DNA from: a virus
Lineage: Duplodnaviria; Caudoviricetes
IMG/VR virus record: IMGVR_UViG_3300042923_000914
Location: 1-40,995 of that record
DNA length: 40,995 nt
Strand: one strand, 5' to 3'
The notes below the pieces were generated by a model. That model did not search any database and had not been told where the DNA came from. It saw only the letters and a list, made by a program, of their open reading frames with translations. Position numbers and translations under genes: made by a program. Shown here piece after piece: positions 22,516-39,586 of this stretch (position 1 is the first letter of the stretch; the number at the start of each line of letters is the position of its first letter).

Positions 22516-23046
22516 TTATTCTCCTTCTTTTAAATGCATATCATAGTAGGTTACTCCTACTGCCATAGCTGCCCATATATCAGCTTTAAATCCGTAAAAT
22601 ACATCAGGGTTTTTCTTATTACCTTTACCATTTTTAAAGTCATGTTTAGCAAATCTATCTATCAATGCTTGTCTTATATTGCTATCTTTAGCTTTCATAC
22701 TGCCACATAGATTAATCTTTTCATCTTTTCTATAAACATACTCAGGCTTTGTTTCAGCTTCAAATATAATCATTTGTACAAATCTACCTATCCATACACA
22801 AGTTTCAAAAACAGTTTTTCCTACTGCCATTCCATAACTTGCTATCATTTCTATAGCCACATGCTCAAATAGATATTTTCTATAAAGTTTTTTTATACTT
22901 GCCAATAATTCAATATTAGGTATCTTTCCAAACTCTACAGGAATTAAATTTTCATCTAAAATTACAAATGCACTTTCAACATCTCCTGGATCTATCGCTA
23001 ATATTTTTCTTGCATGATAACTACTACTATTCGTCAATATCTTCAC
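22516..23046 (-). CDS. RuvC-like Holliday junction resolvase
   Basis: LAIDPG, AIEMI and ADIWAA acidic motifs. Confidence 0.75.
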   Translation of the reverse strand: MKILTNSSSYHARKILAIDPGDVESAFVILDENLIPVEFGKIPNIELLASIKKLYRKYLFEHVAIEMIASYGMAVGKTVFETCVWIGRFVQMIIFEAETKPEYVYRKDEKINLCGSMKAKDSNIRQALIDRFAKHDFKNGKGNKKNPDVFYGFKADIWAAMAVGVTYYDMHLKEGE

Positions 23047-23968: not shown

Positions 23969-24006
23969 ATTTCAGATTATTTTTGTATTACGTAGCAACT
24001 AAAGCT

Positions 24007-24240: not shown

Positions 24241-24259
24241 CTCCCTCACAATAATTTCA
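24241..24259 (-). repeat. Boundary motif TGAAATTATTGTGAGGGAG
   Basis: Identical to 24817-24835. Confidence 0.9.
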
Positions 24260-24816: not shown

Positions 24817-24835
24817 CTCCCTCACAATAATTTCA
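24817..24835 (-). repeat. Boundary motif TGAAATTATTGTGAGGGAG
   Basis: Identical to 24241-24259. Confidence 0.9.
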
Positions 24836-25079: not shown

Positions 25080-25097
25080 TCCCTCATAATAATCTCA
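25079..25097 (-). repeat. Boundary motif variant TGAGATTATTATGAGGGAG
   Basis: 17/19 match to consensus. Confidence 0.85.
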
Positions 25098-25285: not shown

Positions 25286-25304
25286 CTCCCTCGCAATAAT
25301 TTCA
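25286..25304 (-). repeat. Boundary motif variant TGAAATTATTGCGAGGGAG
   Basis: 18/19 match to consensus. Confidence 0.88.
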
Positions 25305-25537: not shown

Positions 25538-25792
25538 TTAATAGCTTCTACTCCAAGTAACATTTACTTTTTTATATTTTTCAAAAATCAGATCCGTTAT
25601 TTCATATGTCATTTTACCCTTGTGAAAAACTTGCTCTCCATCGTTGTCCAGATTTTCAATAACCCAACCTCGTCCAGCTTCATTTTGTACATACGCTAAT
25701 CTAACTTTTACATCATCACATTTAAGATTTAACCTTGGAGTATATAACATCTTTCTATATAATCCAGGTTTACTTAAAACCATCCTTCTCAC
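25538..25792 (-). CDS. Hypothetical protein
   Basis: GGAGGTG RBS; likely start at MVLSKP. Confidence 0.7.
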   Translation of the reverse strand: MRRMVLSKPGLYRKMLYTPRLNLKCDDVKVRLAYVQNEAGRGWVIENLDNDGEQVFHKGKMTYEITDLIFEKYKKVNVTWSRSY

Positions 25793-26033
25793 CTCCGTAC
25801 TTATTCTTTAACTCTAAGAGCTTTTTCATCTTATCTTCATGCTCTTTTATTTCTTCTTGAATCCTTTTATTTATAACTGAGTTGATGCATACAAGAAACT
25901 TCTTAGCTGGTTGTCTACCTTCATCAATCATGTTAAAGGCAAAGTATAAACCCGCTTTTGTATATCCTGTTTGATTTTCAACGTCTGGACCTTTTAAACC
26001 AATCCCTTTTCTAAACTCAGCGTAGCTTTTCAC
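25770..26033 (-). CDS. HTH-like hypothetical protein
   Basis: FRKGIGLKGPDVENQTGYTK resembles an XRE HTH start. Confidence 0.55.
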   Translation of the reverse strand: MKSYAEFRKGIGLKGPDVENQTGYTKAGLYFAFNMIDEGRQPAKKFLVCINSVINKRIQEEIKEHEDKMKKLLELKNKYGGEKDGFK

Positions 26034-26141
26034 CTCTCCACCTTCTTTTCTGTTTTAGTATTTTCCCTTTACTTTTTAATCTATTTTAGTCAAGTATTTA
26101 GTTCGGAATAATTTCAAATAGTTATTTTTAAAATTAAATAT

Positions 26142-26181
26142 AAAAATACCGTAAAATCCATTCCTGAATAATACGGTACTT
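26142..26181 (-). terminator. Moron terminator
   Basis: GUACCGUA..UACGGUAU-UUUU on minus strand. Confidence 0.7.
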
Positions 26182-26196
26182 TTATTAATTTTATAT

Positions 26197-26475
26197 TTAT
26201 TTAAATTCTTTTTCTTGAAAACTTTTATATTCATCAACGCTATCAAAGTAAGTAAACCTGCCCCCGTTTGAATCTGTTAACCAGTTTATATCCTCTTTCC
26301 TTAATTGCGGACCAAGTAAACAATTCATAAGTTCTATTTGCTTTTCATCACGAACTCTGATAAGGCATCCTTCTTGTTCATTAACTATATAAAATTTACA
26401 AACTTCTTTATCAACATATACCATTGAAGTTCCACCACCAAACCAGTTACCCCTGCGGTCTTCTCTATAACCCAT
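26197..26475 (-). CDS. Moron protein of unknown function
   Basis: AGGAGGT RBS; own promoter TTTACA-16-TATTAT (26534-26507) and own terminator. Confidence 0.8.
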   Translation of the reverse strand: MGYREDRRGNWFGGGTSMVYVDKEVCKFYIVNEQEGCLIRVRDEKQIELMNCLLGPQLRKEDINWLTDSNGGRFTYFDSVDEYKSFQEKEFK

Positions 26476-26566
26476 CTGATACCTCCTAAAAATATCTTAT
26501 ACTTTAATAATACCTATTTTGTATTATTTGTAAACCTATCTTGAGATAAAATTACAAAAGTAATTC

Positions 26567-26597
26567 AAGTACCGTACTATTCAGTTTTCAAAGAACA
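26567..26597 (-). promoter_or_regulatory. rrn-type boxA plus 18-nt anti-terminator segment
   Basis: UGUUCUUUGAAAA followed by CUGAAUAGUACGGUACUU, complementary to the minus-strand RNA of 26164-26181. Confidence 0.7.
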
Positions 26598-26627
26598 TTT
26601 CCCCTCACAATAATTTCATTTTCCGAA

Positions 26628-26786
26628 CTATTTGCATTTCTTACAAACAACATAACCCTTTTCTACTCTAAAGGCTCTTACAACAGTATCTATATAATAC
26701 TTTTCATCCTTCTTTATTTCTTTACCGCATATTTCGCATTTAAGCTTTTCACCTTTTGATATATGAGTTTCATAATTAGTTTTCAT
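26628..26786 (-). CDS. 52-aa zinc-finger protein, not in the ORF track
   Basis: MKTNYETHISKGEKLKCEICGKEI...VVCKKCK; GGAGTG RBS. Confidence 0.75.
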   Translation of the reverse strand: MKTNYETHISKGEKLKCEICGKEIKKDEKYYIDTVVRAFRVEKGYVVCKKCK

Positions 26787-30621: not shown

Positions 30622-30933
30622 TCATCTCCTGTACTTTTCATCTAAAAATCTTTGGTGCCAATCATTTTTTTCACTTCTTATTTCCTCGATTGTATCTAGT
30701 AATTTAGAGTTATCTTCTTTTAATTTCTCATTCTCTATTTCAAGTTCTTTAGGACCAGGCAATTCTAAGTTCCTGCATCTTTCTTCAAACCAATCTACTA
30801 GGATATTATCTGGAATACCTATTTCTATATCTGTTTCCCAATCTGTATTGGCAGCTCTAAGAGTGTGAAATGTTCTATCTCCTATAGTTCTTGTAGTTAA
30901 TTCGCATTCGTTTGCTGTTTCGAAATTTATCAT
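30622..30933 (-). CDS. Hypothetical protein
   Basis: Coupled ORF with C-terminal coiled coil. Confidence 0.7.
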   Translation of the reverse strand: MINFETANECELTTRTIGDRTFHTLRAANTDWETDIEIGIPDNILVDWFEERCRNLELPGPKELEIENEKLKEDNSKLLDTIEEIRSEKNDWHQRFLDEKYRR

Positions 30934-31577
30934 TTAGATACCCCCTCATAGCCTTTACACATGGTGTCATATTCCTGTTTAGTAAGCTTAGAAAGTTCGG
31001 ACTTATTAAATTTCTTTATTGAAGCTGATTTAACTTGTGCTGCTAAGTATCCTGCCTTTTGTGCTATTGCAAACAATCTTTTTATTTGCGCCTCAGAACG
31101 CTCAGAACTGTCGTTAGAACTTTTTGGGTTATCGGTTGATGCGTTTGTACCTTTGTTGCCCTTATCGCTTGTATCAGCCTTGCCATGAGTATTAGTTGAA
31201 TCACTATCTTTTGTATCATCAATACAGAATAATCCGTTTAAAGCATATTTTCTTGCATATGATGATACACTTCCAGTTACTTGTGCGAGATCCATACCCT
31301 TCTTAGTTTCATCTTCTCTTGCTAATGCCGAAACTTCTATCTTTTCACCTTTTTCTGCATCAATAAAAGTTGCTATAGCCTTTATATAAAATCTTCCTTC
31401 AATATGAACCATTTCATCACTTAAAGTTACTATTGCTTTTAACTCATTTAACAAAGGTTTCAAACCTTCTAAGATATCCTCACAACTTCTATAGTTGTAT
31501 TTACCAAAACTGTTATATTGGTTTTTAGGAGCTTTTAATTTATTTTGAATATTTACTAATTTTTCATATACATTCAT
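30930..31577 (-). CDS. ERF family ssDNA-annealing protein
   Basis: KAPKNQYNSFGKYNYRSCEDI and SSYARKYALNGLF..DD motifs. Confidence 0.92.
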   Translation of the reverse strand: MNVYEKLVNIQNKLKAPKNQYNSFGKYNYRSCEDILEGLKPLLNELKAIVTLSDEMVHIEGRFYIKAIATFIDAEKGEKIEVSALAREDETKKGMDLAQVTGSVSSYARKYALNGLFCIDDTKDSDSTNTHGKADTSDKGNKGTNASTDNPKSSNDSSERSEAQIKRLFAIAQKAGYLAAQVKSASIKKFNKSELSKLTKQEYDTMCKGYEGVSK

Positions 31578-31587
31578 CTAATCACCT

Positions 31588-32073
31588 CTATCTAATTCTT
31601 AATCCTTCAGTTTGAATTAACTCTACTCCTGGTATTTCTCTACCTTGTTTTAATTCTTTTAAAATTGACGTTCTCATAACCTCTGGTTCAATTTGTTTTA
31701 TATATTCTTTTGGAATAGCCTTTAAATCAACCACATTGACACTAGGAGGATTTTTAGCAATAGAGAGGGTAAATAGTCCGCTCTTAACCTTGTCCTTTCC
31801 TAGAGCCTTTAAAGTACCTTCTATATATGATTTAAGATTTACACATCTATTTTCTAAAGAAGATTGTTTTGCTGCTAATCTTTGTTTTTCTTCTTTTATT
31901 ATTTTTACATCTGCTTCAATGCTTCTTAAAAGTTTTACAATGTTCTCTAGTTTTAAAAATATATCTCCTTCAATAGAGTTTAAAGCTTCTAAAATTACAT
32001 CTTGTGGTATATCAGGGTTTTCCATAAGTTCTTGTAAGTTTTTATAGTTTTCGGTTAGTTCATAAAGTTTCAT
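31588..32073 (-). CDS. Siphovirus Gp157 family protein
   Basis: MKLYEL, KNPPSV, IPKEY and IPGVEL..LRIR motifs. Confidence 0.9.
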   Translation of the reverse strand: MKLYELTENYKNLQELMENPDIPQDVILEALNSIEGDIFLKLENIVKLLRSIEADVKIIKEEKQRLAAKQSSLENRCVNLKSYIEGTLKALGKDKVKSGLFTLSIAKNPPSVNVVDLKAIPKEYIKQIEPEVMRTSILKELKQGREIPGVELIQTEGLRIR

Positions 32074-32095
32074 AAAATCACTCCTTTTTGCAAGT

Positions 32096-32401
32096 TTATA
32101 ATCCTTGACTTTCAATTCTGTATTCTAAGATTGATATTTTATTAGCTTGTTTATTTATAATTTCTTGTAATTCTTCAATCTTTAATTGTTGTTTTATATT
32201 TTCAATAACATAGTTATCTTTCTTGTTAAATTCTTTTATATAAGCTGTAAATTGTGTTACTACTGCATCTACTGCTAAAGAAAGATTTGTTTGTGCATAA
32301 CTTACTTCCTCGCTTGTACCATTAATTAAGGCTGTTTGAAGGAGTAAATCTTTCTCTGATAGGTTTATTAATAAGGCTTCTAATACTGCTATAGTATCCA
32401 T
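32096..32401 (-). CDS. Hypothetical protein
   Basis: AGGAGG RBS. Confidence 0.7.
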   Translation of the reverse strand: MDTIAVLEALLINLSEKDLLLQTALINGTSEEVSYAQTNLSLAVDAVVTQFTAYIKEFNKKDNYVIENIKQQLKIEELQEIINKQANKISILEYRIESQGL

Positions 32402-33323: not shown

Positions 33324-33835
33324 TTATCCTCACTTCCTAATAAATTATTGATTGAATTTTCTAATGTATCATGTCTAAGTGGCATTACAAGCCCTATAAT
33401 TTGTTCCTCATTATAGATTCTTAACATTGGATATCCATCATGGAATGTCGCCTTATATTGAGAATTGGCGTTAAATATTTCAATTAAATCCTTATTGAAT
33501 AAAAAGCATTTTGAGTTAATTTTAAATAGTTGTCCCAATCTCTTATCTTCAAATTCTAAATAAAATGCCGTTTTTTCTGCTACAAGTTCTTCTGAATCAT
33601 CATTGAAGAACTTCTCTAAATCAAAAGGTTTGCTTGGCTTGAATTGTCTTATATCTTCAAATGCTCCAACTTTAATTAATTTTGCTATTATTTCATAATC
33701 TGTATATTGACATACAACACTTATAATCCCATCTGAATATATGAAGTTATCCTCTCTAGTTTGAATAAAATTTCTACCATCCCTAATTTGCTTTACCAGT
33801 TTTTTATGGTTTACTGATAATGAACTATTTGACAT
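33311..33835 (-). CDS. Hypothetical protein, possible clamp-like beta fold
   Basis: AGGAGG RBS; C-terminal IGLVMPLR motif. Confidence 0.65.
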   Translation of the reverse strand: MSNSSLSVNHKKLVKQIRDGRNFIQTREDNFIYSDGIISVVCQYTDYEIIAKLIKVGAFEDIRQFKPSKPFDLEKFFNDDSEELVAEKTAFYLEFEDKRLGQLFKINSKCFLFNKDLIEIFNANSQYKATFHDGYPMLRIYNEEQIIGLVMPLRHDTLENSINNLLGSEDKCVK

Positions 33836-37796: not shown

Positions 37797-38081
37797 TTGG
37801 AATACATAAGAAGAAGTTTAAGATTAACTCAAAAAGAACTCGCAAGTAAGCTCAGGGTAAATCAATCAACAATAAGCAGATGGGAAAAGGGAATAGGTTT
37901 AGAAGGTTTATCAATAAAGGAAATAGTTATTATATCTAATTTATTAGGAATATGCCCGGTTGCAGTAATGTGCTTATTAATTAATTACCTAAAGCACTGT
38001 AATGCGATGGGCGGGGAAATAAAATTTAATGAATGCTATTTAATGAAGAAATATCACAAGGATTTTATGGAGGGAAGATGA
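37797..38081 (+). CDS. XRE HTH protein coupled to integrase
   Basis: LTQKELASKLRVNQSTISRWEKG; TTGACT..TATAAT promoter upstream; ATGA overlap with integrase. Confidence 0.85.
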   Translation: MEYIRRSLRLTQKELASKLRVNQSTISRWEKGIGLEGLSIKEIVIISNLLGICPVAVMCLLINYLKHCNAMGGEIKFNECYLMKKYHKDFMEGR

Positions 38082-39586
38082 AAGTAGCTGTATACACTAG
38101 AAAATCAGTATATAAAGAAGGAGCTATCTCAATAGATACTCAAATAAAAATGTGTAAGGAATATATTTTAAGAGATAATCCTAATGCAGAATTTGAAGTT
38201 TTTGAAGATGAAGGTTTCTCTGGAAAGAATACTAATAGACCTGCATTTAAAAAGATGTTATCTCTAATTAAACTAGGAATGTTTGATACTGTTATTTGTT
38301 ATAAAATAGATAGATTAGCAAGAAATACACTTGATTTTTTAAAAACTTTTGAATTTTTAAAAGAAAATAATGTTTCTCTTGTATCCGTATCGGACGGAAT
38401 AGATCCTAATACTTCTGTGGGAGTTTTGCAATTAACATTGTTAGCAGCCTTTGCACAAATGGAAAGAGAAAATATCCAGGTTAGGGTAAGCGATAATTTG
38501 CTTGAATTAGCTAAGAGTGGGAAGTGGACAGGCGGGTCCGCTCCTATTGGCTATATACAAACCAGTAAAGGAACCCTTGAAATAGAAAATGAAGATATGA
38601 TTAAAGATATCTTTAGGATGAAATATGAGAATAAATCAGTAAATGAAATTATAGAAACTATTAATATTAAATATAATTATAAATTCTCTCAAGCTGCTGT
38701 TCTTAATTCTGTTTTGAGAAAGCCAATACATGTTAAAAGTTCCATAGAAGTTTCTCAATATTTACGCTCCAAGAGATATAAAGTCATAGGTGTAGAAGAT
38801 GGTTTAAACGGCTATTACAACTACAAAGATAAAACAGGGGATTACAGGGTAATAAGTAACACTAAAGCTTGTATAGAGCCTAACATGTGGCTTAGAATTA
38901 ACATGGATATGGATAGATTAAATAAAAGAGAAAACTCTAAGTTTAGCAAAGATTTTTATTTAACTAAAACTTTAGTTTGCCCAGAATGTGGAGGAACTTA
39001 TTTAGGTTGTACTAAAACATGGAATAAAAAATACACACTAAAAGATAAAACTGAAAAGGAATATAAAACAGTAGTAAGTTATTATCATTGTAGAAATAAC
39101 GCTAAAGGAAAGTTAAAAACTTGTGGCAATAATAAAAATATAAGAAAAGAAAAAATAGAAAGTGCAATAGATGAATTAATTCTTTCATTACAAGATGTTT
39201 CTAATTTTGAAAATCTTTATAATAATTCTAAACAAACTAATAATAAGAATGAAATTAAGGTTTTAAACGCTAAAATTAAGGCAATAGAGAAGAATATTAA
39301 TGGGTTAATGGAAAAGGTTATGTTATTAAGTGTAGAAGCTTCTAAAGTCTTTTTAAACAAGATTGAGGAAATAACAGTAGAAAAGTCTAATTTAATAACT
39401 AGAAGAACTGATCTTGAAATTGAAGATATGACAGTAAGTTCTAATACTAAAGAATCTACCTATAGTAAGATAATGCAATACAATAAAGATATGAGCGTAG
39501 AAGAAAAAAGGGAAATATTGATGTATGCATTTGAGAAGATTGTTTATAATCCTAATGATGAAACTCTTGAACTTTTTCTTGTTTAA
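38078..39586 (+). CDS. Large serine integrase
   Basis: YTRKS catalytic Ser, DEGFSG..RP, KIDRLAR, FAQMERE, zinc ribbon CPECG, coiled coil; start moved to ATG 38078 after GGAGGG. Confidence 0.95.
   Translation: MKVAVYTRKSVYKEGAISIDTQIKMCKEYILRDNPNAEFEVFEDEGFSGKNTNRPAFKKMLSLIKLGMFDTVICYKIDRLARNTLDFLKTFEFLKENNVSLVSVSDGIDPNTSVGVLQLTLLAAFAQMERENIQVRVSDNLLELAKSGKWTGGSAPIGYIQTSKGTLEIENEDMIKDIFRMKYENKSVNEIIETINIKYNYKFSQAAVLNSVLRKPIHVKSSIEVSQYLRSKRYKVIGVEDGLNGYYNYKDKTGDYRVISNTKACIEPNMWLRINMDMDRLNKRENSKFSKDFYLTKTLVCPECGGTYLGCTKTWNKKYTLKDKTEKEYKTVVSYYHCRNNAKGKLKTCGNNKNIRKEKIESAIDELILSLQDVSNFENLYNNSKQTNNKNEIKVLNAKIKAIEKNINGLMEKVMLLSVEASKVFLNKIEEITVEKSNLITRRTDLEIEDMTVSSNTKESTYSKIMQYNKDMSVEEKREILMYAFEKIVYNPNDETLELFLV

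Follow-up and report, generated by a model that had tools for sequence, protein, structure and literature searches.

Two copies of the hexamer TGAAAT that bracket a 502-bp cassette in a temperate phage belong to a family of gene-exchange sites, and comparison of these sites suggests that the cassette was likely inserted by an Xer-like tyrosine recombinase acting in trans. Both copies lie in sites of the family, junctions between otherwise unrelated neighbours fall at the 6-bp spacer, the cassette gene sits in a recurrent scaffold of a header (H) and a trailer (T), and the phage encodes no tyrosine recombinase (PF00589; whole window searched).

The phage and its cassette locus

The window, the whole stretch of DNA that was analysed, is an entire virus record of 40,995 bp with terminal repeats, for which CheckV gave a completeness of 64%. 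The phage is a low-GC temperate siphophage with terminase and tail genes, together with the following genes:

22516-23046: Holliday-junction resolvase gene
30930-31577: Erf-like gene
31588-32115: Gam-like gene
38033-39586: large serine integrase gene

The host was taken to be clostridial because relatives of one window gene occur in records titled Clostridium sp.; in all counts, host family denotes the family of genome G006. Among annotated phages the sole match to the window was 100 bp in one array gene, and relatives of a 158-aa gene were not found in the genomes. The cassette locus lies on the minus strand between the replication genes and the late genes and has the following parts:

26628-26786, minus strand: zinc-finger-like gene, 52 aa, the upstream neighbour; no Pfam or PHROG match and only weak relatives
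26619-26630, minus strand: left arm of the upstream class-A site (site score 25.7)
26613-26618, minus strand: 6-bp spacer TGAAAT, putative upstream crossover
26601-26612, minus strand: right arm of the upstream site, with which the cassette begins; the downstream array has arms of this type
26570-26597, minus strand: header H of the scaffold, with the 5' inverted repeat as its 3' half
26507-26534, minus strand: promoter-like match (10/12) within the cassette, not above chance alone
26197-26475, minus strand: cargo gene, with a ribosome site at 26482-26487; its 92-aa product has no known function
26140-26185, minus strand: trailer T, a hairpin and T-run, putative terminator (-21.1 kcal/mol)
26165-26178 and 26147-26160, minus strand: 5' arm (inverted repeat of H) and 3' arm of the T hairpin
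26125-26142, minus strand: degenerate class-B site with spacer TAAAAA at 26125-26130, assigned by position, as relatives carry B after T
26117-26124, minus strand: 8-bp linker from the degenerate B spacer to the downstream A spacer
26111-26116, minus strand: 6-bp spacer TGAAAT, putative downstream crossover
26099-26110, minus strand: right arm of the downstream site; core unique among 241 sites
25770-26033, minus strand: 87-aa gene, the conserved downstream anchor of the locus
25287-25304, minus strand: class-A array site; spacer and right arm with ribosome site, left arm decayed
25080-25097, minus strand: array site, class-A variant with spacer TGAGAT
24818-24835, minus strand: class-A array site
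24242-24259, minus strand: class-A array site
23980-23997, minus strand: class-B site at the array end, spacer 23980-23985

The order of elements is thus A, H, gene, T, degenerate B, 8 bp, A. A sequence-only reading of this DNA had proposed that removing the cassette restores a near-perfect palindromic site, and this proved exact: a 10-bp direct repeat, with no extension beyond 10 bp, lies at 26107-26116 and 26609-26618, and deletion of 26117-26618 (502 bp) leaves 12-bp arms that match at 11/12 around an asymmetric 6-bp centre. No other deletion in the window gives such a 12-6-12 join. At least one arose by chance in 26/300 windows simulated with an order-2 Markov model and in 4/60 of another simulation set; joins with at least 4 G/C in the arm, as in the real arm, appeared in 2/300 windows. 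The spacer and right arm recur in the neighbouring array, as had been claimed (25299-25304, 25092-25097, 24830-24835 and 24254-24259), where the left arms are decayed, and the zinc-finger and 87-aa genes have the coordinates given to them before. The stop codon of the zinc-finger gene forms the start of the left arm. Further A-like and hybrid site matches were seen on the minus strand of the early region, far from the array (33684-33703 and 33447-33468).

The earlier reading did not describe an inner layer, in which the cassette gene lies inside an inverted-repeat scaffold common to other units. The 502 bp therefore contain this scaffold and a degenerate site of a second class, which allow an alternative history of the locus.

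The cassette site is one of many equivalent crossover sites

Searches with the 87-aa gene retrieved 9 viral and 6 genome loci, each with a site at the same place, and the 15 loci have 12 different upstream neighbours, which are the alternatively filled alleles that the sequence-only reading had proposed looking for. By eye, the spacer begins with TG in 14/15 of them. At one locus (L043) another T lies right before the same downstream site, marking a different cassette of the same scaffold family. The window is 72-77% identical to these loci, with identity ending at 26100-26131; because its relatives are no closer, fine mapping rests on comparisons among the relatives themselves. The non-coding stretch 26044-26098 is conserved together with the 87-aa gene and has a TTGAC 16-17 bases past the spacer, possibly a promoter or operator.

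The intergenic gaps of the relatives contain two classes of site, class A with a TGAAAT-like spacer and class B with the spacer CAAAKA behind a conserved left arm. They lie between accessory genes of clostridial phages, on the coding strand: with profiles that started from the spacer and were trained on these very loci, class B gave 102 sense and 0 antisense matches and class A gave 3 antisense matches over 36 sequences. Tandems of B, linker and A are frequent, with spacers 18-21 bp apart, and the linker is 12-15 bp in relatives against 8 bp in the window. The cassette was previously read as filling an acceptor site. Loci with other neighbours and junctions at the spacer support this reading, with the provisos that an empty copy was not found in viral scans, 401 genomes and 3 metagenome runs and that the site is one among many equivalent crossover sites rather than a dedicated acceptor.

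Near-perfect arm symmetry, noted for this site in the earlier reading, did not hold family-wide. The two arms do not covary within sites (class A 4.66 versus 4.66 when shuffled; class B 4.83 versus 4.71), as is expected if each arm moves with its own cassette, and it is the consensus of the arms that is palindromic (4.7 of 12 versus 3.3-3.5 in letter-shuffled arms). These data also bear on a regulatory role for the repeats, with the palindrome serving as the operator of a dimeric regulator. Such a role would suit a phage with many helix-turn-helix genes and arms that are inverted and close to the conserved TTGAC ahead of the 87-aa gene, but the arms reassort independently, conservation is highest in the asymmetric centre, and junctions at the spacer would be left unexplained. 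We therefore regard an operator as very improbable.

In three unrelated phages (L001 at 1340, L002 at 2220 and L005 at 1438; GC 35-49%) the same 16-base half-site was seen a short way ahead of a likely start codon, which reflects either chance or a wider family. A viral scan with the half-site gave 9 matches, all in unrelated contexts.

Genes are exchanged at the six-base spacer

Comparison of 184 site contexts revealed 62 pairs with one flank in common and the other unrelated, and the sites were of the same class in 62/62; with spacer positions 4-6 unscored and 96 genome loci added, this was so in 83/83 junction pairs, the pairs being only partly independent. Identity either falls to background once spacer base 6 is passed or sets in at base 1. 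Among relatives, junctions thus fall at the spacer, where the earlier reading had placed them. A filled and empty pair was found elsewhere, in which locus L017 equals L011 plus a precise 2273-bp block bounded by two A sites. The two classes rarely mix, although their separation is not absolute: cross-class pairs made up 7/129, all via one site and with only scaffold as common sequence, and one gene lies behind a B spacer in L019 and behind an A-like spacer in L023.

An unbiased search returned 226 mosaic junctions, 45 of which lay within 4 bp of a spacer, where the null is 0.6% of all positions or 1.5% of loosely called intergenic positions. Junctions have their right ends most often at bases 4 and 6. 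Their left ends reach into the conserved left arm and are scattered close to sites (6/29 at -3 to +2). The other 181/226 junctions are not near called sites and mostly coincide with plain gene ends, so ordinary mosaicism operates too.

The variation within class-B spacers was informative about the position of exchange. Bases 4-6 differ in 7/10 groups with a common upstream flank and likewise in 7/10 groups with a common downstream flank, at 99-100% flank identity in both sets, and point mutation as the source has a p of about 3e-7 for each set of flanks. In a second grouping, class-B bases 4-6 were variable in 11/17 groups with the upstream flank in common and 8/12 with the downstream flank in common, and spacer bases 1-3 in 5/17 class-A groups. 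Since bases 4-6 vary with either flank fixed, exchange occurs on both sides of base 5, even where no homology follows. That base 5 is tied to neither flank argues against a single fixed crossover or homology in the left arm, and fits staggered cuts with a mismatch-tolerant overlap.

These results can be set against the idea that the sites are linkers from stop codon to ribosome site, or boundary sequences, joined by homologous or microhomology recombination, for example by the phage Erf, with the palindrome a coincidence. Such linkers have been proposed (PMC3029335, in the part of the article available), and they would account for the majority of junctions at gene ends without a site (181/226), for the overlap of the array sites in the window with stop codon and ribosome site, and for a phage with an Erf-like gene (30930-31577) and no recombinase in cis. 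The only long shared stretch, however, is the left arm plus CAAA, which would tie base 5 to the downstream flank, yet base 5 varies in 7/10 groups, and we take this as the chief argument against linkers. Sites also occur far from start codons: one lies 77 bp ahead of the 87-aa gene, and others precede H, follow T or form part of B-linker-A tandems. In addition, the arm consensus is palindromic above letter-shuffled arms (4.7 versus 3.3-3.5 of 12). Linkers alone are thus an unlikely explanation.

An inner H/T scaffold surrounds diverse cargo genes

A 35-bp inverted repeat within the cassette (26164-26198 and 26550-26584) is part of H and T and recurs around other genes. We collected 105 H-gene-T cassette units with other cargo, one of them a chloramphenicol acetyltransferase (CAT). 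H was present in 73 viral loci by exact pattern, in 70/151 host-family genomes (1 control match) and in 4/201 genomes of the class, with up to 24 copies per genome, clustered in arrays. A BLAST count of 280/380 genomes with H includes weak AT-rich matches and is superseded by the controlled 70/151.

In P2-like phages a variable region is flanked by inverted repeats. Inversion of the cargo between H and T was ruled out here, as the cargo gene faces forward in 49/50 H/T units. Of 46 cargo proteins scanned, 21 match Pfam, including CAT, four GNATs, VanZ, MATE, NUDIX, SIR2, a metallo-beta-lactamase fold and others. The CAT gene lies within a prophage H/T cassette (L019, 8480-9118), and another cargo has a pyridoxamine-oxidase fold (L029, 8977-9471), which may resemble that of Nim nitroimidazole reductases. 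The 92-aa cargo of the window has homologues of 51-60% identity, the named ones from Brevibacillus and Paenibacillus and none among 292 host-family genomes; no protein family or usable look-alike was found for it in searches that included Pfam and PHROG.

Across 105 units H covaries with the T of its own unit (z 8.9) and the T arms covary with each other (z 9.4), whereas H does not match the T of the preceding cassette (z 1.4, 36 cases). This places the crossover between T and the next H, where the A and B sites lie. Anchored on H and T only, 35/67 viral headers have a site just upstream, 33 of class A (null 1.4%), and 35/56 trailers have a B site just downstream. Spacers upstream of H share mainly TG, and those downstream of T share C and the final A.

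H and T are probably expression signals, or else may form a fold that aids recombination. T has a terminator-like hairpin, which a strict terminator scan did not call; Rfam gave no match; the 5' half of H may resemble boxA; and 7 promoter-like sites were found versus 4.0 +/- 2.2 in shuffles. With regard to possible antitermination by H, the H:T duplex was predicted at -33.7 kcal/mol against -21.1 for the hairpin, and the fold of the whole cassette nonetheless retained the hairpin.

The covariation of H with T could also reflect an integron-like single-strand mechanism, in which H and T are halves of a long folded site in the circle, the crossover lies in a loop and the A and B arms are only part of the site. 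The predicted circle junction does fold with an H:T stem (-17.8 versus -9.4 +/- 2.2 kcal/mol in shuffles), gaps from T to H are mostly 85-103 bp, and 49/50 cargo genes are forward. But covariation is just as strong within T's own hairpin, in agreement with an RNA terminator; the spacer is placed in a loop that is unpaired, and the A and B arms do not covary; most phage cassettes are exchanged at A and B sites without H or T; and a single fixed crossover would bind base 5 to one flank. Such a mechanism is therefore improbable, and exchange at duplex A and B sites by an Xer-like enzyme remains the preferred reading.

History of the cassette

As the origin of the locus we rather favour a single crossover, A x A, at a site that lay between the zinc-finger gene and the 87-aa gene; it would yield A-H-gene-T-B*-linker-A and split the palindrome. 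In this model the enzyme would bind two loose inverted arms with two protomers per site and cut on either side of the 6-bp spacer. The first exchange would check the first 2-3 bases (TG or CA) as an address, and the second would tolerate mismatch at positions 4-5. A typical cassette would run A site, H, gene, T, B site, so that a circle excised from an array would carry an A and a B site and could enter sites of either class. H and T might conceivably provide the gene's own start and stop signals.

The same sites permit another history, in which an A-to-B module was exchanged in beside a pre-existing B-linker-A and the empty palindrome never existed. An A upstream with a B downstream is the commonest cassette frame, and the degenerate B at 26125-26142 would complete it. 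By eye, none of the relatives read at this locus has a clear B-linker ahead of the site, which speaks against such a module. The arms can be argued both ways: against the window's right arm, three known left arms score 11/12, but 11/12 is rare among left-by-right arm pairs (7/10296), and the right arm has an unusual core, seen once in 241 sites, that mirrors this very left arm. The rare match and mirrored core favour former adjacency of the two arms. The lack of an empty allele in viral scans, 401 genomes and 3 runs, by contrast, is what a module history would predict. We consider that history possible but less probable than the single crossover.

The searches for the empty site gave 0 matches in two viral scans, only 1 match in the 401 genomes, in a coding region and attributable to chance, and no empty-site joint in the 3 metagenome runs. 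The filled form is present in three soil-metagenome runs, and one metagenome contig covers 23963-26832 without change, from a run that is possibly the source of the window. Joints at 26176-26570 in these runs were considered as deletions but in all likelihood represent other H/T cassettes. Run X3 has a contig break at 26102-26119, which at a depth of 3-4 gave no evidence of an empty allele.

Candidate recombinases

A 331-aa Xer-type recombinase gene follows the array in L011, L014 and L017, 3/9 of the loci fetched by the 87-aa gene. At 14 loci fetched with this recombinase, 90 sites lay upstream and 9 downstream of it, and in 7/14 the last site was 63-101 bp ahead of the gene, the place where a dedicated attI would be looked for; most arrays have no recombinase nearby. 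H was carried by 9/10 genomes with the 331-aa gene versus 60/139 without (p 0.006, uncorrected for kinship and genome size). The protein passes the XerA-like model NF040815 and fails the integron integrase-type comparison TIGR02249 (99.8 versus a cut-off of 265 bits). The gene is absent from the window, from 4/4 complete records reached by the 87-aa gene and from 180/194 host-family genomes; a close homologue is absent from 26/28 H-bearing viral records, 28 of 30 loci having been searched separately, and no PF00589 gene lies beside the arrays of five genomes examined. Since the phage has no tyrosine recombinase and most carriers lack the 331-aa gene, action in trans is likely, and our first candidate is a host Xer-like protein, at roughly an even chance of being the enzyme. 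The 331-aa XerA-like protein of a co-resident phage is a possible but clearly less probable source.

Other recombinases were observed. The most integron-like layout is at L042 (9647-13450), where a 47%-identical homologue of the recombinase is followed by two H/T cassettes. In L127 and L128 (phiCp-D and TPELB_ph1), 45%-identical homologues lie between tail and holin/lysis genes, away from arrays, and probably serve another function; family likeness alone thus fails to tie an enzyme to the cassettes. A pair of tyrosine recombinase genes, with frames of about 380 and 660 aa, was seen in 4/5 genomes, with sizes reminiscent of TnpA/TnpB of Tn554:

G380:C1 3563333-3565455: recombinase pair
G125:C2 840707-842862: recombinase pair
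G152:C5 21377-23524: recombinase pair
G243:C6 685437-690652: recombinase pair

The serine integrase of the phage (38033-39586) was set aside, since large serine integrases exchange over 2 bp. The Holliday-junction resolvase of the phage could complete half-finished exchanges.

We also compared the arms with dif. For Desulfotomaculum acetoxidans a dif has been predicted, and the window's left arm shares 9/11 bases with its left arm. Across the family, arms agree with dif arms at a mean of 4.1-5.2 of 11, which is low though higher than in shuffles (3.0-3.5), and the inner core of dif (ATAA/TTAT), found in 0-7% of arms, is not conserved. A pattern search for the host dif gave matches equal to controls. 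For Clostridium sensu stricto, the available portion of a dif survey (PMC3025954, supplement 2) has predictions that are missing or 137-175 degrees off the skew shift, so the dimer-resolution site of the host seems unsettled.

Comparison with known systems

The system resembles pdif modules and integrons in its working, yet departs from each in a defining feature. In the part of the source available on dif/pdif modules of Acinetobacter plasmids, moved by host XerC/XerD (PMC10132070), the likenesses are arms of about 11 bp around a 6-bp spacer, few spacer types, single-gene modules and an enzyme that is not adjacent. As there, the better conserved A and B arms point to the cargo, and by eye the TCG core of pdif XerC arms and the TCR core here are at equal distance from the spacer. 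In contrast, a XerD arm with the ATAA/TTAT inner core is not conserved here (at most 7%). Relative to the same text, direct-repeat frames (A..A and B..B) are common here, the sites lie in Clostridia phages and chromosomal islands, and there is an extra H/T scaffold. A..B frames look inverse; the outer sites of this cassette are direct repeats.

Integrons and CALIN, as treated in the portion available of PMC4889954, are alike in having arrays of co-oriented one-gene cassettes that change order, typical cargo (GNAT, CAT, VanZ, MATE, NUDIX), cassette-specific terminal inverted repeats and sometimes a recombinase gene at the array end. They differ in that the linked recombinase here is XerA-like and not IntI, with no PF00589 in the window, that the crossover sites, which fall into two classes, are short and duplex-like with arms that do not covary, and that in many cassettes a promoter and a terminator seem to be included. 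IntDOT of CTnDOT requires 2 bp of homology at one end of the overlap and tolerates mismatches in the rest, according to the text available (PMC2034462). Short end homology followed by mismatch-tolerant exchange is the pattern deduced from sequence here, for small non-autonomous cassettes rather than one large self-encoding conjugative element. The symmetric conserved arms, strict spacer identity and cognate gene on the element of the loxP/Cre type were not found. Boundary sequences of mosaic phages (PMC3029335, available part) are likewise short repeats at gene boundaries with junctions; here the junctions bracket a fixed 6 bp, occur without following homology and involve two non-mixing classes, and crossover is not confined to shared homology, spacer base 5 being unlinked to the downstream flank. 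We found no description of such a cassette-site system in the open-licence literature.

Implications for phages and Clostridia

The precision with which temperate phages acquire single accessory genes still lacks an explanation; candidate routes are all that is listed in a 2026 study of phage defence hotspots, which in its available part names no site motif (PMC13586616). Here, the point of exchange is narrowed to six bases, and both an address rule and a position that tolerates mismatch emerge. In roughly half of the host-family genomes sampled, one scaffold joins prophages with chromosomal arrays and bears resistance-type cargo. If confirmed, this would be a counterpart of integrons in a group reported to lack them, one missed by current finders; the survey of integrons, in the part available, gives no complete integron in Firmicutes genomes (PMC4889954). 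It would also point to a function for the Xer-like enzymes of Clostridia, for which the dif site is poorly defined. More tentatively, and with the chances against it, Clostridia may run a family-wide cassette network in which a host Xer-like recombinase, using loose sites with two 2-3-bp addresses, moves self-contained units, resistance genes included, between chromosomal arrays and prophages. H/T would then be a terminator that read-through transcripts switch off, so that cassettes could enter a phage operon without blocking it.
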